DNA of 64,000 nt from Deltaproteobacteria bacterium CSP1-8 (GCA_001443455.1 LDXO01000001.1:3102-67101); one strand, 5' to 3'; numbered from the stretch's first letter, positions 696-11,105 are shown. Made by a program: numbers and translations. The notes: a model not told the origin generated them from the sequence alone.

Positions 696-1658
696 ATGCC
701 CAAGACGAAGTTCGTGAAGGACATCCAGGAAGGGGAGCAGGTCAAGGACCTTTTCCTGGTAGCCAACAAGGCGTTGCTTTCCAGCAACTCCGGGAAGCCG
801 TACATCAACCTCTCCCTGCGCGACCGGACCGGCCAGATGGAGTGCCGCGTCTGGGACCGCGCCGAAGAGATCGCGAAGCGGTTCGACCGGGACGACATCG
901 TGGAGGCGACCGGGAGCGCCATCCTGTACCAGGGTCGTATCCAGCTCAAGGTGCACGACGTCCGGAATGTGGAGGGGGAGGCGGACCTCTCCGATTATCT
1001 CCCCGTGACCCGGAAGGGGATCGACTTCCTCTGGGAAGAGCTGCAGGCGCTGGTGAGGGAATGCAAGGATCCGGATCTCTCCCGCCTGCTCAGGCGGGTC
1101 TTCCCGGACCCCCCGGCAACGGAGACGGCGCAGCGGTTCCGGCAGGCCCCGGGGGGGAAAAGCATGCACCACGACTACATCGGCGGGCTTCTGGAGCACA
1201 CGGTGTCGGTCGCCGCGATCTGCCGGTTCCTGTCCGGGCATTACCCGGGAGTGGACGCGGACTTGCTGATCGCCGGCGCGCTCCTCCACGACATCGGGAA
1301 GGTGGGGGAGCTCTCCTACGAGGGGGCGTTCGACTACACGGACGAGGGTCGTCTGCTCGGCCACCTGTACATGGGCGCCGAGTGGGTAGCCGGGGAGTGC
1401 GCGCGGATCGAGGGGTTCCCCGCCGACAAGACGATGCTCGTCAAGCACATGATCCTCTCCCACCACGGGGAGCTCGAGTACGGTTCCCCGAAACGGCCCA
1501 AAACGCTCGAGGCGATCCTTTTGCACTTCGTCGAGAACATGGACTCGAAGGCCAACGCTTTCCTCGAGGCGATGGAAGACCTGCGGGAAGGGGCGACCTG
1601 GACCGACTACCAGCGGATGTTCGAGAGGTACCTGTTCGCGGGAAAGAAAAGCAGGTAG
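696..1658 (+). CDS. yhaM: 3'-5' exoribonuclease YhaM-like (N-terminal OB-fold plus HD phosphohydrolase domain)
   Basis: 320 aa. HD-domain motifs 'HHDYIGGLLEHT' and 'LLHDIGK'; N-terminal OB-fold region. Length and layout match YhaM. Confidence 0.65.
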   Translation: MPKTKFVKDIQEGEQVKDLFLVANKALLSSNSGKPYINLSLRDRTGQMECRVWDRAEEIAKRFDRDDIVEATGSAILYQGRIQLKVHDVRNVEGEADLSDYLPVTRKGIDFLWEELQALVRECKDPDLSRLLRRVFPDPPATETAQRFRQAPGGKSMHHDYIGGLLEHTVSVAAICRFLSGHYPGVDADLLIAGALLHDIGKVGELSYEGAFDYTDEGRLLGHLYMGAEWVAGECARIEGFPADKTMLVKHMILSHHGELEYGSPKRPKTLEAILLHFVENMDSKANAFLEAMEDLREGATWTDYQRMFERYLFAGKKSR

Positions 1659-1700
1659 GCGGCCCCGCGGGGGAGGCGAAGACGGAAGGAGTCGGTTGTC

Positions 1701-2597
1701 ATGGACCGGAGAAAGACGGTGTTCTGGATCATCGGGCTTGTGGTTCTGTGCCTCGGGTCCCCGCTCTTCGCCCAGGAAGGAGCGAACCCGGGGAAAAGGA
1801 ACTTCCTCTGGAAAGTCCGGTCGGAGACTGCCACCGCCTACCTGCTGGGATCGATTCACCTGCTGAAGCCGGACATGTACCCCCTGGACCGGAAGATCGA
1901 GGAGGCCTTCGATCGGTCCGGCGTCCTTGTCGTGGAAACCAACGTCCGGGACGGGGCGGGGGAAGAACGGCAAAAGCGGATGCTTACGGGCGCCCTCTAT
2001 CCCGGTGACGACACAATCAGGAACCACCTCTCGCAGGAGACGTACGACCTGTTGAGGCGGCGGTTCCCAGAGCTTTCCCTGGACCGCGTGGGACGGTTCA
2101 AGCCGTGGGCCCTCGCGATGACCATCGCCGTGCTGGAGTATCAGAAGATGGGGTTGAACTACAATCACGGGATCGACGTCTACTTTCTCGACAAGGCGTC
2201 GAACGGGAAACGGATCCGGGAGATCGAGCGTCCCGATTCCGTGATCGACATGCTGAACGGGTTTTCCGACGAGCACCAGGACCTGTTTCTCCAGTACACC
2301 CTCCTGGACCTGGACCAGGTCAGGGAAAAGACGGACCGGATCCTCCGCGCGTGGAGCGACGGCGATGCGGCGACCCTGGAAAAGATCCTCTCCGAGAGCA
2401 TTCACGGACACCCCCGCCTGACGCCCATCTTCGACGCCCTCTTCACCAAGAGGAACGCGACCATGGCCGCGAAGATCGAGGGGTACCTGAGGGAGACGGG
2501 GGAATTCTTCGTCGTCGTGGGGGCCGGCCACCTCGTGGGGGAGAAGGGGATCGTCGAACTGCTGAAAAGGAAGGGGTTCCCCGTCGAGCAGCAGTAG
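1701..2597 (+). CDS. TraB/GumN family protein (secreted)
   Basis: 298 aa with signal peptide 'VFWIIGLVVLCLGSPLFAQ'. 'FLWKV...TAYLLGSIH' and 'GAGHLVG' blocks are characteristic of TraB/GumN. Confidence 0.55.
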   Translation: MDRRKTVFWIIGLVVLCLGSPLFAQEGANPGKRNFLWKVRSETATAYLLGSIHLLKPDMYPLDRKIEEAFDRSGVLVVETNVRDGAGEERQKRMLTGALYPGDDTIRNHLSQETYDLLRRRFPELSLDRVGRFKPWALAMTIAVLEYQKMGLNYNHGIDVYFLDKASNGKRIREIERPDSVIDMLNGFSDEHQDLFLQYTLLDLDQVREKTDRILRAWSDGDAATLEKILSESIHGHPRLTPIFDALFTKRNATMAAKIEGYLRETGEFFVVVGAGHLVGEKGIVELLKRKGFPVEQQ

Positions 2598-2608
2598 CGT
2601 CGAACCGG

Positions 2609-3979
2609 TTACCCCACTTCGTCGAAAGATCGCAGCCGGAAATGGACGCCTTCGATCGACTCCGCCAGGCGTCGCACCGCTTCGTGGTCCAGGCCGGGAA
2701 GGGCCACCGCGGTTGCTGTGACCGAGGGAACGTGCCTGGGCGCTTCCCGGAGGAAGTCGAGGAGGGCCGGGAAGGACGCCTCGCCGTACCGGTTCGGGCA
2801 GATCCGGGCGTACGTCGGGGCGTCGGGGGCGTTGAGGGAAACGGAGAGGGCATCCACCAGCCCGGCGAGCTCCGGCAGGACGTTGCGCCCGTGCACGAGG
2901 TTTGCCAACCCGTCGGTGTTGACCCGGACGAAAGCCCCCTTCGCCTTGAGCAGGGCCGCGATCTCCTTGACCTCCTGCAGCCGGAGGAGGGGCTCCCCGA
3001 ACCCGCAGAAGACGACCTCGTCGTACGCGGTGGGGTCGCCGACCTCCGCGATCACCTGTTCCACGCCGGGTTCCCCGGGAAGCTTCAGGTAATGCCCCTT
3101 CACGTGAAAATCACCCCGCTTCGCGCAGAACGTGCAGATGTTGGTGCACCGGTTGGTGATGTTCAGGTACAGGGAGTTCCGGATCCGGTATGCGACACGG
3201 ACCTCCTCGTCGACGGGAATCCGGAAGATCCGCTTCGCGTTCATCGTGGTGACGCGGGCCACGTCCTCGACGGACAACCCCTTGATCTCGGCAATCCGTT
3301 TCGCCACGAGGGGGACGTACGAGGGTTCGTTCGTCCTTCCCCGGTGCGGTACCGGGGCCAGGAACGGGCTGTCGGTCTCGATGAGCAGCTTCGCAAGCGG
3401 CAGATGGCGGACCGCCTCCGCCTGGGTCTCGGACCCCTTGTAGGTGATTGCCCCGGGGAGGGAGATGAGAAAATTCATCCCGATCGCCCGGCGCGCCATC
3501 GCCAGATCCCCGGAGAAGCAGTGGATGATCCCCCCCACCTCGGAGGCCCTCTCCTCCGAAAGGATGGCGAGCGTCTCCTCGTGGGCGTCCCGGTCGTGGA
3601 CGACGACGGGAAGATTCCGCTTCCGGGCGAGGCGCACCTGCTCCCGGAACGAGGCCCGCTGCGCGTCCCTCGGCGACCGGTCCCGGAAGAAGTCGAGCCC
3701 TGTTTCGCCGACCGCGACCACCTTGTCGCACCGCGAGAGGCGGTCGAGCCGCTCAAGGAGCTCATCCGAGCACCCGGAGGCGTCGTGCGGGTGGAGCCCC
3801 ACGGCCGCATAGACCCCGCCGTGACGGTGGGCGATCTCGATCGCCCTCTCGTCGCTCCCCGGGTGGATCCCGATCGTGACGATGTGGGTGACCCCCGCCT
3901 CGCGGGCGCGGCGGACGACGTCGTCCTCCTCGTCGCAGAGCGGTGGAAGATCCAGGTGGGCGTGTGTGTCGAAAAACAT
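2609..3979 (-). CDS. tatD: TatD-family metal-dependent hydrolase fused to a C-terminal TatD-associated radical SAM domain
   Basis: 456 aa. N-terminus 'MFFDTHAHLD...' with the TatD His/Asp/Glu metal-ligand pattern (~255 aa). C-terminal ~200 aa carries a CX3CX2C motif 'CTNICTFC' plus glycine-rich SAM-binding blocks, resembling the normally separate TatD-linked radical SAM family. Confidence 0.75.
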   Translation of the reverse strand: MFFDTHAHLDLPPLCDEEDDVVRRAREAGVTHIVTIGIHPGSDERAIEIAHRHGGVYAAVGLHPHDASGCSDELLERLDRLSRCDKVVAVGETGLDFFRDRSPRDAQRASFREQVRLARKRNLPVVVHDRDAHEETLAILSEERASEVGGIIHCFSGDLAMARRAIGMNFLISLPGAITYKGSETQAEAVRHLPLAKLLIETDSPFLAPVPHRGRTNEPSYVPLVAKRIAEIKGLSVEDVARVTTMNAKRIFRIPVDEEVRVAYRIRNSLYLNITNRCTNICTFCAKRGDFHVKGHYLKLPGEPGVEQVIAEVGDPTAYDEVVFCGFGEPLLRLQEVKEIAALLKAKGAFVRVNTDGLANLVHGRNVLPELAGLVDALSVSLNAPDAPTYARICPNRYGEASFPALLDFLREAPRHVPSVTATAVALPGLDHEAVRRLAESIEGVHFRLRSFDEVG

Positions 3980-4190
3980 CGGAGTGAGCGCTTTCTACGG
4001 GAAGACTGGATGGTCTGTCCCGGAAATAGGGCGAAGCACCGAGAGCGTCGATGCGCCGGGCCAGCAAGGCGCACGACTGAGGCGTACTGCTGGATGGTAC
4101 GCCGCAAGAAGTGCAACGATGCTGGGGCGGATGCAGCGGCGCTCGAATGCCGGCATATTGACGGGACGGGCCATTCAGTCTTCGATCCGG
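3961..4190. repeat. Partial, inverted copy of the interspersed repeat family (S/Y modules) in the tatD-metG intergenic region
   Basis: Minus strand of 4030-4090 matches 24245-24300. 'ggcgtactgctggatggtacgccgcaag' resembles 'ggcgtacggtcagtacgccgcacaag' at ~23950. The spurious ORFs 3475..4116(-) and 24011..25207(+) share the peptide 'YASV(V/A)RLAG(P/A)AHRRSRC'. Confidence 0.6.
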
Positions 4191-5707
4191 GGAAAGGCGA
4201 TCACGGATCGGGGGAGTGTGGCCCCGACGCGCAAGCCCCCCCAACGGCCCGCCTCGGAAAGGGTCGCCTTCTCCACGCGGCCGTCGCACCCGAGCGCCTC
4301 CCACATCCTCTGTGCGGCCGTGGGGATGAACGGGGACATCAGCAGGACGGAGACCCTTGCCGCCTCGAGGGCGTGGTAGAGGACGGTCCCGAGCCGGTTC
4401 TTCCTCGCGGGGTCCTTCGCCAGGGCCCAGGGGGCGTTCGTGTCGATGTACCGGTTCGCCGCGTCGGACAGGTTCAGCACGGCCGCGAGCACCTTGTGGA
4501 ACTCCACCTCTTCCATCGCCGCGTCCGCGGCGGGCAGGATCTCGCGGCCGGCGCAAAGAAGCCCCTCGTCGGAAAGTTCGGGCGCGGAGGGGGAGGGGAC
4601 GACGGAGCCGAAGTATTTCGCCAGCATGTTGAGCGACCGGTTCAGAAGATTTCCCAGGTTGTTCGCGAGGTCGGAGTTGATCCGGTCCACGAGCGCCTTC
4701 CTCGAGAAGTCGCCGTCCTTGCCGAACGGCACCTCGCGGAGAAGGAAGTAGCGGAAGGCGTCGGCCCCGTACTTCTCCACCATCTCGTACGGGTCGACCA
4801 CGTTGCCCAGCGACTTGCTCATCTTCTGCCCCTCGACGGTCCACCATCCGTGTGCGAAGACGCCCAGGGGAGGCTCGATGCCGGCGGACATGAGGAACGC
4901 CGGCCAGTAGATGGCGTGGAACCGGAGGATGTCCTTCCCGACCATGTGGACGTCGGCCGGCCAGAACGTGTCGAACGCCTCGGTACGCTTCGGGTATCCC
5001 AGCCCCGTGATGTAGTTCGTCAGGGCGTCGTACCAGACGTAGATGACGTGCCCGTCCGCCCCGGGGACCGGGATTCCCCACGTAAGCGAGGTGCGCGACA
5101 CGGACAGGTCGGTAAGCCCCGCCTCGACGAAGGCGATGACCTCGTTCCGCCGGCTCTCCGGGCGGATGAACCTCGGGTTCCTTTCGTAGTACCCGAGGAG
5201 CGGCTTCTGGAACTTCGAGAGCCGGAAGAAATACGATGGCTCCTTCCGCTTTTCCGCCGGCCGCCGGCAATCCGGGCACGTTCCGTCGACCAGCTGCAGG
5301 TCGGTCCAGTACGACTCGCAGGGCGTGCAGTACCATCCCTCGTAGGCGCCCAGGTAGATGTCTCCGTTGGCGTGCGATTTCCGGAAGATGTCCTGGACGG
5401 AGGCGTAGTGGCGCGGCTCGGACGTCCGGATGAAGCCGTCGTTGCTGATGGTGAGCGCCGACGAGAGCCCCTGGAAGCGGGTGACGACGCGGTCGGCGAG
5501 TTCCTTCGGGGGGATCCCCTGCTGCGTCGCGCTCTTGTTCACCTTCTCCCCGTGCTCGTCGGTCCCCGTGAGGAAGAAGACCTTCTGCCCCTTCATCCGG
5601 TGCCACCGGGCGAGGGCGTCGCACGCGATCGTCGTGTAGGCGTGCCCGATGTGCGGGACGTCGTTCACGTAGTAGATCGGGGTCGTGATGTAGAACGTTT
5701 CCTTCAC
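4175..5707 (-). CDS. metG: Methionine--tRNA ligase (short form, no C-terminal tRNA-binding extension)
   Basis: 510 aa. 'HIGH' motif as 'PHIGHAYT', 'KMSKS' motif present, zinc-knuckle cysteines 'CTPCESYW...CPDC'. Confidence 0.92.
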   Translation of the reverse strand: MKETFYITTPIYYVNDVPHIGHAYTTIACDALARWHRMKGQKVFFLTGTDEHGEKVNKSATQQGIPPKELADRVVTRFQGLSSALTISNDGFIRTSEPRHYASVQDIFRKSHANGDIYLGAYEGWYCTPCESYWTDLQLVDGTCPDCRRPAEKRKEPSYFFRLSKFQKPLLGYYERNPRFIRPESRRNEVIAFVEAGLTDLSVSRTSLTWGIPVPGADGHVIYVWYDALTNYITGLGYPKRTEAFDTFWPADVHMVGKDILRFHAIYWPAFLMSAGIEPPLGVFAHGWWTVEGQKMSKSLGNVVDPYEMVEKYGADAFRYFLLREVPFGKDGDFSRKALVDRINSDLANNLGNLLNRSLNMLAKYFGSVVPSPSAPELSDEGLLCAGREILPAADAAMEEVEFHKVLAAVLNLSDAANRYIDTNAPWALAKDPARKNRLGTVLYHALEAARVSVLLMSPFIPTAAQRMWEALGCDGRVEKATLSEAGRWGGLRVGATLPRSVIAFPRIED

Positions 5708-5744
5708 CTGTGCGTGCCTCCCGGTGCCAGGTGCTCGCGGGCGG

Positions 5745-5893
5745 CTTCCTCTCCGCTACGCTCGCGACCTTCGCCCGCTCGCTGCCGGTTCCGCTCGACC
5801 CAATTCACCGGGGACATTCCAAGGGGGGACATTCCTATATCGAGTACTGAGTTGAGGATTGTCCCCCCCCCAGCGCTCAGGAGTGTCCCCGCC
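5745..5893. repeat. Copy of the interspersed repeat family: G module (reverse orientation) plus P hairpin module
   Basis: 'gcttcctctccgctacgctcgcgacc...cgctcgacccaatt' is the reverse complement of the G module seen at 8415-8490 and 60225-60310. It is followed by duplicated 'GGGGACATTCC' half-sites and 'GGA(T/G)TGTCCCC' arms. Confidence 0.65.
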
Positions 5894-5895
5894 CA

Positions 5896-6642
5896 TTAAC
5901 TCTCCTCCTCGTCGCCGAACCGGAACGAGAGGTCCTCCGTCCCCTCGACGGCGGGAGCCTGCCGCCCGTCCGGGGCCGCGGCGCATGTCCCGCACGCCTT
6001 GTTCCGGGCGTATGATTCGTGCTCGTAAATGAGGCAGCACATCAGCCTGCCGCACACTCCGGAGAGTTTCGCCGGGTTGAGCGCGAGCCCCTGGTCCTTG
6101 GCCATCCTCACGGTGATCGGCTCGAAATCGGAAAGATGGGAAGAGCAGCAGAGCTCCTTGCCGCAAGGTCCGACTCCCCCCACCATCCTCGCCTCGTCGC
6201 GTACGCCGACCTGGCGCATCTCGATGCGGGTTCGCAGTTCGTGGGCCAGGTCCTTGACCAGTTCCCGGAAGTCGATCCGGCCGTCCGCCGTGAAGTAGAA
6301 GATCGACTTGCTCCGGTCCAGGAGAACCTCGGTCCGCACGAGCTTCATCGGGAGTTTTCTCGTCCCGATCCGGGAAAGGCAAAAGGCGTGGGCATCCGCC
6401 TCGCGCTTCCCGTTTTCCCGGTGGGCGTGCAGGTCGTCGGCGGAGGCCGCCCGGACCACCTTCGGGAACGAGGTTTTTTGCGAGGCGAGGGAGACGTTGT
6501 CGATCCGCTGGACGACTTCGCCCAGGATCGGCCCGCGCTCCGTCATCACGACCACGTAGTCCCCCTTCCCGAGGGGAATCCCGGTGCAGTCGTAGTGGTT
6601 CATCTTGCAGACCCCCCGGAGCCTGATTCCCGCCAGATCCAT
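5896..6642 (-). CDS. ricT: PSP1 C-terminal domain protein (RicT/YaaT-like)
   Basis: Starts at 'MDLAGIRLRG' (ATG 6642), 9 nt after the holB stop. The conserved Cys cluster 'GPCGKELCC...CGRLMCCL' is typical of PSP1/YaaT. The upstream in-frame extension of the 588-aa ORF was rejected. Confidence 0.7.
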   Translation of the reverse strand: MDLAGIRLRGVCKMNHYDCTGIPLGKGDYVVVMTERGPILGEVVQRIDNVSLASQKTSFPKVVRAASADDLHAHRENGKREADAHAFCLSRIGTRKLPMKLVRTEVLLDRSKSIFYFTADGRIDFRELVKDLAHELRTRIEMRQVGVRDEARMVGGVGPCGKELCCSSHLSDFEPITVRMAKDQGLALNPAKLSGVCGRLMCCLIYEHESYARNKACGTCAAAPDGRQAPAVEGTEDLSFRFGDEEES

Positions 6643-6650
6643 TTCGGAAC

Positions 6651-7631
6651 CTATCCCTTCCCGTGAAATTCGAACAAAAATGCCTCCACCATGAGCTGTT
6701 TTTGCGCCTGAGGAGGCATGCGAGACATGGAGAGAAGCGCCCGGAGCGCCCGGCTCCACCCTTCCGTAGTCTTCTGGCCGGCGACGGCCCGCAGCGCGTT
6801 CTTCAAATCCTCGTTTATTATACCCATTTCCGCGCCGGAAGATAGTAGGGCGAGGTCCCGCACGATGGAGAGGGGGGGTGCGACCTTCCGCGAGATGTCC
6901 CCCGTACCTCTCCACGACGCTGCGGCTGCGATGATGGCAGCCGGGTCGGGGGAGGACAGGAGGCTGACCCACTTTTCCCGCTCGCCTTCGGCCTCCTCCA
7001 GCACCTCGAGCGCCCTTCCGGGGCTTCCCCCCGAGCAGGCCGCCGCGCCGCGGAGGTCTTCGGGGGAATGGCGATCGCCGACCCCGGGGATGCCTGCAAG
7101 GATCTCCTCCACCTCCCTCGCCGAAAGGGGGGAGAAGGAGACCTTCTGGCAGCGGGAGACGATCGTGGGGGGGAGGCGGGAGATCTGGTGCGCCACGAGC
7201 AGAAGGTGCGTCCCCGGCGGAGGCTCCTCGAGCGTCTTGAGGAGCGCGTTTGCGGCCTGGACGGTCATCCGGTCGGCCGGAGCGATGACGACGGCGCGCG
7301 GGCGATCCGAGAACGCCTTCAGCGACAACTCCGCCTGGAGGCGCCGGATCCCGTCGATCAGGATGTGCTGGTTCTCCGGCGAGACGGGCAGGAAGTTCGG
7401 GTGGGATCCCGAGGAGAGAAGCCGGCAGTCGTGGCACATCCCGCACCCGCCCGCCGGCCCCCGGTGGCGGCAGAAGAGGGCCGAAACGAAGGCAAGGGCC
7501 GCCTTCTCCTTCCCGATCCCCTCTTCCCCGAAGAACAGCAGGCCCGGGGGGACGTTCCCGGACTCGAGGTAGCGCACCAGGAGGGCCACCGCCCGGTCCT
7601 GCCCCCGTATGCCCCCGAAGATCCTCACCAT
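6651..7631 (-). CDS. holB: DNA polymerase III subunit delta'
   Basis: Start chosen at 'MVRIFGGIRGQDRAV' (ATG 7631), overlapping the tmk stop as ATGA. P-loop-like 'GEEGIGK', Zn-module 'CGMCHDC', 'SRC' sensor motif. Confidence 0.75.
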   Translation of the reverse strand: MVRIFGGIRGQDRAVALLVRYLESGNVPPGLLFFGEEGIGKEKAALAFVSALFCRHRGPAGGCGMCHDCRLLSSGSHPNFLPVSPENQHILIDGIRRLQAELSLKAFSDRPRAVVIAPADRMTVQAANALLKTLEEPPPGTHLLLVAHQISRLPPTIVSRCQKVSFSPLSAREVEEILAGIPGVGDRHSPEDLRGAAACSGGSPGRALEVLEEAEGEREKWVSLLSSPDPAAIIAAAASWRGTGDISRKVAPPLSIVRDLALLSSGAEMGIINEDLKNALRAVAGQKTTEGWSRALRALLSMSRMPPQAQKQLMVEAFLFEFHGKG

Positions 7632-8284
7632 CCGAGTCGAGCCGCCACCCATCCCCGCACATGGCGGAATACCTCGTCGGCCGGGGGCGCTCCGTCGATC
7701 CGGACGATCCGGTCCGGATGCCCTGCCTGCAGGCGGAGGTACCCCTCCCGGACCTTCCGGTGGAACTCGATCGTCTCGGACTCGATGCGGTCCGGCCGCG
7801 TCCCCCGGCCGGGGAGGCGCAGAAATCCGGCTTCGGGGTCGATGTCGAAGAGGAAGGTGAGGTCCGGGACGAGCCCCCCGGAGGCGAAGGCGTTCATCTC
7901 CTCGATCCGCGCGTCGTCGATCCCGCGGGAAAACCCCTGGTAGGCGGAGGTGGCGTCGAAGAAGCGGTCGCACAGGACGGCTTTCCCGGAGGTGAGGGCG
8001 GGGAGGATGAACGCGCGGACATGCTGGGCGCGCGCCGCCTCGTAGAGGAGCAGCTCGGTCTCGGGGAAGACGCGCTCTTCGCGCGGAGAGAGCAGGAGCC
8101 GACGGATCTCGTCGGCCACGGGAGTTCCTCCCGGCTCGCGGGTCACGACGTGGGGGATCCCTTGCCCTGCGAGATATTCCGACAGAAGACCCAGTTGCGT
8201 GGTCTTGCCGGATCCCTCGATTCCCTCGAACGTGACGAACGGAGCCCGAGCCAACCCCAATGATCCCCCTCGAGGATGCGTCAA
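7625..8284 (-). CDS. tmk: Thymidylate kinase
   Basis: 219 aa. P-loop 'FEGIEGSGKTT', DRF/Y motif 'CDRFFDATSAYQG', lid region. The true start may be an internal GTG/TTG. Confidence 0.85.
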   Translation of the reverse strand: MTHPRGGSLGLARAPFVTFEGIEGSGKTTQLGLLSEYLAGQGIPHVVTREPGGTPVADEIRRLLLSPREERVFPETELLLYEAARAQHVRAFILPALTSGKAVLCDRFFDATSAYQGFSRGIDDARIEEMNAFASGGLVPDLTFLFDIDPEAGFLRLPGRGTRPDRIESETIEFHRKVREGYLRLQAGHPDRIVRIDGAPPADEVFRHVRGWVAARLGW

Positions 8285-8328
8285 AGGAGAAATCCTACCG
8301 CGTCGGGGACCCCGGAGGAAGACCTACT

Positions 8329-8575
8329 GCAGCGTCTCGCAAATCCATGGACCATCGAGTCCGTCTCCGCGCACAGGGCGCTGCGGGGGGTTCCTCGCAG
8401 CGGCCTGTGGAGCGAGGGAGAAATTGCGTCGAGCGGAACCGGCAGCGAGCGGGCGCAAGGTCGCGAGCGTAGCGAGAGGAAGCCCCCCGCGAGCCCGTGC
8501 GCGGAATTGCCGCCTGTCCGGGGCTATCCCGGCGGCGGATCGGTGCGTCAATCCATTTACGAGACGCTGCATTAG
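8329..8575. repeat. MITE-like element bounded by ~20-bp terminal inverted repeats, carrying the G module
   Basis: Left end 'TGCAGCGTCTCGCAAATCCATGG' and right end 'CCATTTACGAGACGCTGCA' are inverted copies of each other. The interior 'aaattgcgtcgagcggaaccggcagcgagcgggcgcaaggtcgcgagcgtagcgagaggaagcc' recurs at 5745, 60225 and 63385. Confidence 0.7.
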
Positions 8576-11019
8576 CACTCCGAGAAACCGCACGAACGGC
8601 ATTTGAGGCACCCCTCCTGCATCTCGACCTGGCTGCCGCAGTCGGGGCAGGCGCCCCGCGCGATCCCGAAGTCCCCGCTGCCGAGAGCGCTCACCTGCCG
8701 GGAAGTGTTCTTCGGGTTGGCCGGGAGCGGGGATCCCTCCGGCGGCGCATTGGCGATGAATATCCTGTCGATGTTGTCGATGTACCACTCGACGGCCTTG
8801 GCCACCGCGTCCGCGCACGACATGATCTTCGCACCGTTTCCGGCCCACGCCGGGAGGTGGCACGATATCCCCTTCAGCTGCTTGACGATCATGTCGGGCT
8901 TGACCCCCGATCGGAGGGCCAGGGAGGCGAGCCTCCCGATCGCCTCGGACTGCGAGGCCGCGCATCCGCCCGCCTTCCCCATCTGGTTGAACACCTCGAA
9001 GATCCCCTTCTCGTCGCGGTTCATGGTCACGTAGATCTTTCCGCAGCTGGTCTTCATCTCCCTGGTGACCCCGAGAAGAGTGTCGGGCCGCGGGCGGGTG
9101 GAGACGTAGCCTAAGCCTCTCTCCGGGGCAGCGGGCTCCCGGGCGGAGTCCGCCCGCTTCACCTCGCCGATGTTCAGCACCTGCTCATCCCGGCTCTTGT
9201 CCCGGTAGACGGTGACTCCCTTGCACCCCAGCCGGTACGCGAGCAGATAGACCTTGCGGATGTCCTCCCGGGCCGCGTCCGAGGGAAAGTTGACCGTCTT
9301 GGACACCGCGTTGTCGACGTGCTTCTGGAAGGCGGCCTGCATCCTCAGGTGCGCCTCGGGCGAGATGTCGTGAGCCGTCACGAAGATCCTGCGCACCTCC
9401 TCCGGGATCCCCTCCACATGGCGCAGGGTCCCATTCCGGGAGATCTCCTTCATCCGCTCCTGCGAGTAGATGCCGTGCTGCTTTATCTGCGCCTCGAAAA
9501 GGGGGTGCACCTCGACGAGATGATCGTTGTCCATCACGTTGCGGATGAACGACAGGGCGAAGATGGGCTCGATGCCGCTGCTGCACCCGGTGATGATGCT
9601 GATGGTCCCTGTCGGGGCGATCGTCGTCGTGGTGGCGTTGCGCCGGGGGATCTTCCCGCTGTCCGCGAACACGCTCACGTCGTAGTTCGGGAACGGGCCC
9701 CGTTCGCGCGCCAGGTGCGACGAGGCGGCGGCCGACTCCTCCTGGACGAAGCTCATCACCTCCTGGGCAACGGCCAGGGCCTCGTCCGAGTCGTAGGGAA
9801 TGCCGAGCTTGATGAGCATATCGGCGAATCCCATCACCCCCAGCCCGACCTTCCGGTTCCCCATCGTCATCTGGCGGATCTCGGGGAGGGGGTAATGGTT
9901 CATGTCGATCACGTCGTCGAGGAACCGCATCGCGTCGTGGATCGTCTCGCGCATCTTCTCGTAATCGATCCGGATGCTCCCGTTCTCGCCCGTCACCATC
10001 CCGGAGAGGTTGATGGAGCCCAGGTTGCAGCTCTCGTAGGGTAAAAGAGGCTGCTCTCCGCACGGGTTGGTGCTCTCGATGGGGCCGAGCCCCGGGGTGG
10101 GGTTGTCCCGATTGATCCGGTCCAGGAAGATGATCCCCGGTTCCCCGTTCCGCCACGCGGCGTCCACGATCTTCTCGAACACCTCGCGGGCGGGGAGACG
10201 CGCGGCGACCGTCCGGGAGTGGGGGTTGACGAGCTCGTATTCCGCGTCCGCCTCCACCGCCTTCATGAAGTCCTCCGTGAGCGCGACGGAGATGTTGAAG
10301 TTGTTCAGGCGGTCGTTCTTCGTCTTGCAGTTGATGAACTCGAGGATGTCGGGGTGGTCGACCCGCAGGATCCCCATGTTCGCCCCCCGCCGGGTTCCCC
10401 CCTGCTTGATCGTCTCGGTCGCCGCGTCGAACACGGTCATGAAGGAAATGGGCCCCGACGAGATGCCCTTGGTGGACTTGACGACGTCGTGCTTGGGGCG
10501 CAGCCGCGAGAAGGAGAAGCCGGTACCGCCTCCGCTCTTGTGGATGAGCGCGGTGTTCTTGACCGCTTCGAAGATCGACTCCATCGAGTCGTCGACGGGC
10601 AGCACGAAGCACGCCGACAACTGCTGCAGCTCTCTCCCCGCGTTCATCAGGGTGGGGGAGTTGGGCAGGAAGTCGAGTCGGCACATCATCGCGTAGAACC
10701 TCTCCGCCCACCGGAGGACGACCTCGGGCACGGTGCCTGGGTAGCGCCCTTCCGCCGTCGCGATGTTGTAGGCCACGCGCGCGAGCATCTCCTCGGGAGT
10801 CTCCATCCTCTCCCCGGAGGGGTCCAATTTGAGGTATCGGCGCTCGAGCACCTTCCGGGCGTTCTCCGAGAGCGGCATCGGGCCGTACTTCGCCCGCATC
10901 CTTTCGGCCCACTCCTTCGGAGGGTGATCCGGAAGTTCCCTGGTTCCGGAGACCAAGGAAGTCTCCTGCTTGTCGGCCTCCGGGATGGAGGGCACGGAAA
11001 CCGAGAGGTCCAGTTTCAT
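8572..11019 (-). CDS. nrdJ: Ribonucleoside-diphosphate reductase, class II (adenosylcobalamin-dependent), monomeric NrdJ type
   Basis: 816 aa from 'MKLDLSVSV' (ATG 11019). Class II hallmarks 'CFVLPV', 'NPCGEQPL', 'GGTRRGA' and a C-terminal Zn-ribbon 'CPDCGSQ...CLKCRSCG'. Confidence 0.9.
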   Translation of the reverse strand: MKLDLSVSVPSIPEADKQETSLVSGTRELPDHPPKEWAERMRAKYGPMPLSENARKVLERRYLKLDPSGERMETPEEMLARVAYNIATAEGRYPGTVPEVVLRWAERFYAMMCRLDFLPNSPTLMNAGRELQQLSACFVLPVDDSMESIFEAVKNTALIHKSGGGTGFSFSRLRPKHDVVKSTKGISSGPISFMTVFDAATETIKQGGTRRGANMGILRVDHPDILEFINCKTKNDRLNNFNISVALTEDFMKAVEADAEYELVNPHSRTVAARLPAREVFEKIVDAAWRNGEPGIIFLDRINRDNPTPGLGPIESTNPCGEQPLLPYESCNLGSINLSGMVTGENGSIRIDYEKMRETIHDAMRFLDDVIDMNHYPLPEIRQMTMGNRKVGLGVMGFADMLIKLGIPYDSDEALAVAQEVMSFVQEESAAASSHLARERGPFPNYDVSVFADSGKIPRRNATTTTIAPTGTISIITGCSSGIEPIFALSFIRNVMDNDHLVEVHPLFEAQIKQHGIYSQERMKEISRNGTLRHVEGIPEEVRRIFVTAHDISPEAHLRMQAAFQKHVDNAVSKTVNFPSDAAREDIRKVYLLAYRLGCKGVTVYRDKSRDEQVLNIGEVKRADSAREPAAPERGLGYVSTRPRPDTLLGVTREMKTSCGKIYVTMNRDEKGIFEVFNQMGKAGGCAASQSEAIGRLASLALRSGVKPDMIVKQLKGISCHLPAWAGNGAKIMSCADAVAKAVEWYIDNIDRIFIANAPPEGSPLPANPKNTSRQVSALGSGDFGIARGACPDCGSQVEMQEGCLKCRSCGFSEC

Positions 11020-11063
11020 GGTAGCTGCTCCCTTGTAAATATTATCCCACTTTAATGATAGCG

Positions 11064-11105
11064 TATCTTGTGGTGGATGTTTATCACGCATACAAGATAT
11101 GGTGT
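11064..11105 (-). promoter_or_regulatory. Candidate NrdR-box-like operator / inverted repeat upstream of nrdJ
   Basis: 'ATACAAGATATGGTGT' (11091-11106) matches the NrdR-box consensus acaCwAtATaTwGtgt at 13/16 positions. It forms an inverted repeat 'TATCTTGT...ACAAGATA' 45-80 nt upstream of the nrdJ ATG. Only one good box was found. Confidence 0.25.

Follow-up and report, generated by a model that had tools for sequence, protein, structure and literature searches.

The open reading frame (ORF) at positions 2609-3979 on the minus strand of a 64,000-nucleotide stretch of the Deltaproteobacteria bacterium CSP1-8 genome (LDXO01000001.1:3102-67101; hereafter the window, with positions counted from its first letter) encodes a TatD hydrolase and a radical S-adenosylmethionine (SAM) domain in one polypeptide, here called tatD::rSAM. 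The protein is almost certainly a class II, YcfH/YabD-type TatD nuclease joined to a minimal radical SAM domain of the TIGR04038 family. This architecture is an ordinary and already catalogued one for TIGR04038, found in thousands of bacteria, and, with all the evidence taken together, we consider it probable that tatD::rSAM is a bifunctional protein of this widespread type, in which the chemistries of the two domains may be coupled.

The 456-residue ORF begins with ATG, is uninterrupted, and is a genuine TatD plus radical SAM polypeptide in which both domains were recognized far beyond chance. Pfam placed TatD_DNase (PF01026) at residues 3-253 with 284.1 bits (cutoff 27) and Radical_SAM (PF04055) at residues 272-441 with 65.9 bits (cutoff 29.5). 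NCBIfam placed TIGR00010, the YchF/TatD family, at residues 2-253 with 270.5 bits (cutoff 206), and TIGR04038, tatD_link_rSAM, at residues 262-453 with 255.3 bits (cutoff 129.7), spanning positions 2-192 of the 192-position model; searched alone, the radical SAM domain scored 258.4 bits. TIGR04038 is named 'TatD family nuclease-associated radical SAM protein' (IPR023821) and is typed 'subfamily_domain' in NCBIfam. The TatD domain, a metal-dependent nuclease fold (residues 3-253; 3221-3973), is followed between the two hidden Markov model (HMM) envelopes by an eight-residue linker (residues 254-261, IPVDEEVR; 3197-3220) and then by the radical SAM domain, delimited by HMM and domain model (residues 262-453; 2621-3196), all on the minus strand. 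The protein therefore has both marks of TIGR04038 membership, a full-model score above the cutoff and a TatD domain in the same ORF. An earlier note, made from the sequence alone, had described a full TatD fold and a 'TatD-associated' radical SAM core with the motif CTNICTFC (3125-3148) in a single 456-residue ORF, and the HMM searches that it proposed bear this description out, with both domains above their curated cutoffs in one polypeptide. No second TatD or radical SAM paralogue was found within the window.

Split forms of this pair exist, one of them differing from the fusion by a single in-frame stop codon, and a sequencing or assembly artefact, in which a frameshift or lost stop joined neighbouring tatD and radical SAM genes, was considered; the earlier note had named about 3210-3230 as the place to look. 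We regard the chance of such an error as negligible. Measured in 30-codon windows along the whole ORF, junction included, third-position GC content in the annotated frame never left the range 0.77-1.00, and no stop or frame change was present across the linker. Homologues aligned nearly gap-free through the junction, with linker length conserved. Both Pfam domains were present in all of the 120 best database homologues (77-91% identity; JGI, ENA, NCBI and Logan assemblies), which were 456-463 residues long except for two partial entries (P0098, 401 residues; P0101, 436 residues). A profile search added 120 more distant homologues (45-61% identity, 455-474 residues), again all with both domains; proteins of isolates (Geoalkalibacter halelectricus, Geothermobacter ehrlichii, Pelobacter seleniigenes, Malonomonas rubra) are among them. 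The finished chromosome of G. halelectricus (CP092109.1) has the gene annotated as one 461-residue product. Because third-position GC periodicity is unbroken over the junction and the same single frame recurs in the close homologues from independent assemblies, in the distant homologues, in the species-level genomes described next and in a finished isolate genome, a merged-gene artefact was excluded.

The earlier note had also taken the TatD-linked radical SAM protein to be usually a separate gene beside tatD, and the frequency survey that it called for did not support this premise. The radical SAM domain alone (residues 258-456) was searched against one representative per 50%-identity cluster (about 15 billion proteins), giving 1318 matches at E ≤ 1e-3 and 241 at E ≤ 1e-30. 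A TatD domain lay N-terminal to the radical SAM domain in 97 of the best 150 representatives (65%; 82 complete and 15 truncated), and the remaining 53, several of them fragments, were without one; fusions thus make up 40% or more of these 241 strong clusters even when every cluster beyond the best 150 is counted as unfused. When one genome from each GTDB species was scanned, at least 597 genomic matches were returned, and in 76 of the best 80 species-level loci TatD and radical SAM shared one uninterrupted frame. Both surveys were ranked by similarity to the fused query and, having started from it, may over-represent fusions. With these counts and with the model typed as a subfamily domain, the fusion is ordinary and not a notable exception, and the TIGRFAMs description of TIGR04038 presumably already mentions fusion to TatD. 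Among the best 80, fused loci came, by their source names, from Deferrimicrobium-like 'Deltaproteobacteria', Desulfuromonadales, Geobacter and Geomonas, from Nitrospirota and Thermodesulfovibrionales, Nitrospinota, Planctomycetota (Brocadiaceae), Acidobacteriota, Bacteroidota and Verrucomicrobiota, and from Firestonebacteria, Omnitrophota and beta- and gammaproteobacterial metagenome-assembled genomes (MAGs).

Among the four unfused loci of these 80, split forms can retain the link to tatD. In an Elusimicrobia MAG (L071, 5080-6609), the tatD stop codon at 5992-5994 is followed at 5995 by the ATG of the radical SAM gene in the same frame, and here a lone stop codon is all that sets the split form apart from the fused one. 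A Thermoanaerobacterales MAG (L057, 1-8038) carries metG, tatD, a hypothetical gene with glycine reductase grdE/grdB-like genes, a stand-alone radical SAM gene, a DUF348/G5/3D (YabE-like) gene and ksgA; 3.7 kb has been inserted between tatD and the radical SAM gene, and the latter has nonetheless retained its position within the Firmicute metS-yabD-yabE-ksgA block. The link is not absolute, because no tatD was present within flanks of about 4-6 kb on each side in a Geobacteraceae MAG (L042) and a gammaproteobacterial MAG (L066). In L066 the neighbours of the stand-alone gene are a DUF1631 gene and one for a ferric-reductase-like flavoprotein. In a rough neighbour-joining tree of 134 radical SAM domains, fused and stand-alone forms were interleaved, which suggests repeated fusion and fission of the two domains; the tree gave about 24 state changes, a number on which we do not rely, as some 'stand-alone' entries may be contig-edge fragments. 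The earlier argument that the fusion speaks for a functional coupling of the two activities was accepted.

The N-terminal half resembles a fully equipped class II TatD enzyme. Residues 4-10 read D-T-H-A-H-L-D, so that an HxH metal-binding motif (H6-A-H8; 3956-3964, read from the sequence) stands where other TatD proteins have (G/A)xN, and HxH is the motif that defines the class II enzymes YcfH, YjjV, TATDN2 and TATDN3 (PMC10085689). H6, H8, E92, H128, H153, E201 and D203 were invariant in 146 fused proteins; for E. coli TatD, PMC10711561, citing Chen 2014, gives E91, E201 and D203 as catalytic. The complete set of predicted TatD metal-binding and catalytic residues is thus present, and residue conservation points to a metal-dependent activity of the 3′-5′ exonuclease or apurinic/apyrimidinic (AP) endonuclease kind. 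The nearest solved proteins were S. aureus TatD (2gzx/6l25; 230 bits), T. maritima 1j6o and E. coli YcfH (1yix; 184 bits), the last outscoring E. coli YjjV (147) and TatD (132). S. aureus TatD is 42-43% identical, superposes on the model with a root-mean-square deviation of 1.1 Å and a target-normalized TM-score (TMt) of 0.96-0.97, and has its metal ligands in common with tatD::rSAM. YcfH, YabD and S. aureus TatD likewise have HxH and all of the acidic and histidine metal ligands, and yabD and ycfH occupy the same location after metG, holB and tmk; unlike these proteins, tatD::rSAM adds a C-terminal radical SAM domain. Of the three E. coli paralogue models, that for the YcfH equivalog (NF008075/PRK10812) gave the TatD domain its highest score, 212.4 bits against a cutoff of 438, and because this falls below the cutoff the TatD half is called YcfH/YabD-like and not an equivalog. 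E. coli YcfH itself is a 3′-exonuclease on single-stranded DNA and an AP-endonuclease on double-stranded DNA (PMC10085689).

The C-terminal half is, in its predicted structure (predicted local distance difference test (pLDDT) 93.9, predicted TM-score (pTM) 0.90), a minimal partial (β/α) barrel that has one cluster site and lacks an auxiliary-cluster domain. The motif C278-T-N-I-C282-T-F-C285 supplies the predicted [4Fe-4S] ligands; all 146 fused proteins have the CX3CX2C motif, and G326-x-G328-E329 was invariant. The domain combines the features of the PF04055 superfamily (CX3CX2C, a GGE-type motif and a partial barrel), and is predicted to bind a [4Fe-4S] cluster and to cleave SAM reductively. 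A second set of cluster-binding cysteines was not found in the domain, which has only one further invariant cysteine besides the triad. This residue, C325, stands directly before GxGE (FCGxGEP) and was present in all 146 fused proteins and in 31 of 33 sequences of a mixed alignment. The segment C325-G-F-G-E329-P (residues 325-330; 2990-3007), in which the GGE-type SAM motif follows the invariant cysteine, aligns with GGEPL of MoaA and GMGEPL of RlmN, neither of which has a cysteine at the C325 position. A role for C325 in donating an H atom or in linking the substrate is conceivable. The cysteine triad, GxGE and R333, R352, R448 and R450 were conserved across fused and stand-alone forms, and Y264, Y271, Y390 and an SxSLNA strand were also conserved in the domain.

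No solved structure of the TIGR04038 family was found by sequence search, and a profile search gave remote matches only. In Foldseek comparisons, pyruvate formate-lyase activating enzyme (PFL-AE) was the best match to the radical SAM domain (query-normalized TM-score (TMq) 0.70-0.73), followed by the NifB core, viperins, QueE and MoaA, with PFL-AE, NifB, viperin and QueE all matched at probability 1.00. By sequence profile the nearest solved structures were MoaA (8.2e-8) and RlmN (1.3e-7), at only about 35 bits, and all named-family HMMs fell far below their cutoffs, leaving TIGR04100 as the sole close family. PFL-AE (3c8f, 3cb8, 8fo0) is likewise a minimal single-cluster partial barrel, but its identity to the radical SAM domain is only 17-20%, its profile match is weak (E-value 8e-4, 22 bits), and the domain here is about 45 residues shorter. 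While PFL-AE partners a glycyl-radical enzyme, the radical SAM domain here partners a TatD hydrolase; no glycyl-radical enzyme gene was present among the annotated neighbours at 696-11091, and the domain was not assigned to the PFL-AE type. With MoaA, which acts on a nucleotide, and RlmN/Cfr, of which RlmN acts on RNA, the domain has the cluster loop, the GGEP motif, the TNG strand and the SxSL strand in common. It belongs to neither family: the MoaA model scored 26.4 bits against 284, with the domain ending after the core and carrying no auxiliary [4Fe-4S] domain, and the RlmN/Cfr model scored 19.3 bits against 290, with neither an equivalent of the RlmN cysteine pair nor an N-terminal RNA-binding domain. 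TIGR04100, 'rSAM_pair_X', is a sister family that matched over the whole domain with 164 bits, below its cutoff of 262, and 33 of 33 members of one alignment (A1) matched both TIGR04038 and TIGR04100. We take TIGR04100 to be defined by pairing with a different small protein and not with TatD.

These relationships bear on whether the radical SAM domain might transform a free nucleotide, as MoaA, viperin and QueE do, with the TatD domain serving as a phosphohydrolase on the substrate or product. MoaA was the best profile match among solved structures, 22 of 33 family members matched a MoaA-like tungsten-cofactor maturase model, viperin and QueE were among the fold matches, and the conserved arginines would fit phosphate binding in a domain that is not basic overall. 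We nevertheless think such small-molecule chemistry improbable. The MoaA models scored far below their cutoff and the C-terminal, GTP-binding auxiliary-cluster domain of MoaA is absent, MoaA Arg17 aligns with an invariant tyrosine of the TIGR04038 family, and characterized TatD enzymes act on polynucleotides (PMC10711561, PMC10085689). The barrel is, moreover, smaller than that of PFL-AE, which would usually go with macromolecular substrates.

The two halves appear to be held in a defined arrangement. The full-length AlphaFold model had a pLDDT of 94.7 and a pTM of 0.82; the linker reached 81-89, compared with more than 93 for most other 10-residue blocks, residues 281-300 had 84-85, and the C-terminal tail 59. 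The larger domain comprises 257 of the 456 residues, and confidence confined to the inside of the domains would, by the definition of the TM-score, cap pTM at about 0.56. Because the value obtained exceeds this cap, fixed packing between the domains is predicted. No PDB entry spans both domains (best TMq 0.55). A fixed arrangement would also suit a regulatory role, in which the radical SAM domain is a redox- or oxygen-sensing Fe-S module that gates the TatD nuclease, or a self-maturation role, in which it modifies the TatD domain. Judged from the source names of the loci, it is in anaerobes and microaerophiles that the family is concentrated, and Dorival and Eichman have argued that TatD nucleases probably need regulation (PMC10085689). 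Against this, the GxGE SAM motif and many non-cluster residues are invariant, which would be unexpected for a mere sensor, stand-alone radical SAM proteins exist, sometimes (L042, L066) with no tatD nearby, and a fused single-turnover maturase would be unusual. We consider either role very unlikely.

Our best, though tentative, guess at the mechanism is that the protein couples phosphoester hydrolysis by the TatD domain to radical chemistry whose substrate is a nucleic acid or a nucleotide. Radical-based processing or repair of nucleic acid, as suggested in the earlier note, is a reasonable guess. The reduced [4Fe-4S] cluster would cleave SAM to a 5′-deoxyadenosyl radical, which would abstract an H atom from a phosphate-bearing substrate held between the domains; the likeliest such substrates are a nucleic-acid end that is damaged or blocked, and a nucleotide. 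The TatD two-metal centre would then hydrolyse the phosphoester in the manner of a 3′-5′ exonuclease or AP-endonuclease. For its active site to be closed, the open, PFL-AE-like minimal barrel would depend on a macromolecular partner or on the TatD domain. Coupling is also consistent with the split forms, which keep the radical SAM gene directly after tatD (L071) or within the metG-tatD...yabE-ksgA block (L057).

Several points weigh against this mechanism. The pTM argument covers fixed packing, not whether the two active sites face each other. The radical SAM domain is not basic (isoelectric point 6.1, family median 7.2), and for that reason does not look like an obvious nucleic-acid binder by itself. 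The metG neighbourhood described below is not a universal signal, because half of the fused loci have no metG upstream, and the D-aminoacyl-tRNA hydrolysis reported for YcfH-type enzymes (PMC10711561) points to a different substrate. Full-text literature searches returned no paper on TIGR04038 function and one incidental mention of IPR023821; literature hits on T. pallidum, C. thermocellum and Halobacteria were rejected as irrelevant to the family.

A more specific proposal, to which we give rather low odds, is that the family is a near-housekeeping enzyme, mainly of anaerobes, for radical-based nucleic-acid repair or processing, or else a new tRNA or aminoacyl-tRNA quality-control activity. 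In a repair enzyme of this kind, the radical SAM domain would act on a lesion or blocked 3′ end so as to make it excisable by the fused TatD nuclease. After spore photoproduct lyase, this would be only the second case of nucleic-acid repair by a radical SAM enzyme, and the gene at 2609-3979 would be one ordinary family member and not a special case. The protein matches the TIGR04038 model over its full length, has the CX3CX2C motif and, like most of its nearest relatives, is fused to a TatD domain; it has nothing distinctive of its own, and it is 91% identical to existing metagenome proteins. It is a typical member of an already known fusion family and adds no new evidence on function; for this reason, and because the TatD association is built into the family's database name, the gene matters little for the window. 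The family, by contrast, matters more, as a very widespread radical SAM domain fused or linked to the conserved YcfH/YabD nuclease in a replication and translation block. Its function is experimentally approachable, since the fusion occurs in cultivable Geobacter, Geomonas, Geoalkalibacter and Malonomonas, and the invariant extra cysteine beside the SAM motif and the confidently predicted two-domain arrangement offer further starting points.

The gene lies in a conserved context. Directly upstream, and also on the minus strand, are metG, encoding methionine-tRNA ligase (4175-5707; NF008900, 719 bits), then ricT (5896-6642), holB (6651-7631), tmk (7625-8284) and, directly upstream of tmk, nrdJ, encoding a B12-dependent ribonucleotide reductase (8572-11091; 1205 bits). 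The tmk-holB-ricT-metG-tatD neighbourhood pointed out in the earlier note was thus found, in that gene order. The extended order nrdJ-tmk-holB-ricT-metG-tatD::rSAM recurs across phyla and was conserved in loci L001 and L003-L006, L002 having no upstream sequence. Among 60 fused loci with enough flanking sequence, metG was immediately upstream in 30, and 25 of the 60 also had ricT and holB; G. halelectricus (CP092109.1) has tmk-holB-PSP1-metG-tatD::rSAM. It has been noted that yabD/ycfH co-evolves with dnaE and is linked to metG and ksgA (PMC3814617). Given the conserved metG, holB and tmk context, the fusion occupies the housekeeping tatD slot after metG. A role in anti-phage defence was rejected, as QatD scored 98 bits against 230, the PADLOC match to pVip had an E-value of only 1.7e-4, and the context is a housekeeping one.

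The position beside metG raises the alternative that the protein serves translation, with a TatD domain of the YcfH/DTD3 type acting as a (D-)aminoacyl-tRNA deacylase and the radical SAM domain acting on the same tRNA or aminoacyl group, either by modification or by epimerase-like H-atom chemistry with C325 as the H donor. Besides the metG gene upstream here and in half of the loci counted, and the radical SAM gene within the metG-tatD...ksgA block of the Firmicute-type locus L057, this is consistent with the extra invariant cysteine beside the SAM motif and with the occurrence of the RNA methylase RlmN (1.3e-7) and the radical SAM epimerase YydG/EpeE (4.3e-5) among the nearest solved families. 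Hydrolysis of D-aminoacyl-tRNA has been reported for E. coli YcfH and Synechocystis DTD3 (dtd3) (Wydau 2009, cited by PMC10711561). The resemblance to RlmN and EpeE is, however, remote (26-35 bits) and confined to the common radical SAM core, the RlmN equivalog model scored 19 against a cutoff of 290, and the protein has no tRNA-binding domain. Since the metG block also holds the DNA-replication genes holB and tmk, it does not single out translation. We judge this translation-linked role to be as improbable as the free-nucleotide chemistry considered above, and the coupling of radical chemistry on a nucleic-acid or nucleotide substrate to TatD hydrolysis remains the reading that we favour, in the tentative form given.

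The metG stop and the tatD::rSAM start are separated by 195 non-coding nt (3980-4174), and the corresponding interval of L001, the closest locus, is about 60 nt long. Neither an Rfam family nor a sigma-70-like promoter nor a terminator-like site turned up in the 195-nt interval. Scans around the gene gave no Rfam, tRNA or promoter-like match, and two terminator-like matches (2331-2348 and 2456-2471), which is no more than shuffled sequence gave. On the plus strand, and convergent with tatD::rSAM, 696-2597 encodes a YhaM-like OB/HD 3′-5′ exoribonuclease (207 bits, short of the 460-bit equivalog cutoff) and a 298-residue protein with no NCBIfam match, the stop codon of which is 11 nt from that of tatD::rSAM. 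In L001 and L002 as well, the fusion is flanked by YhaM-like genes.

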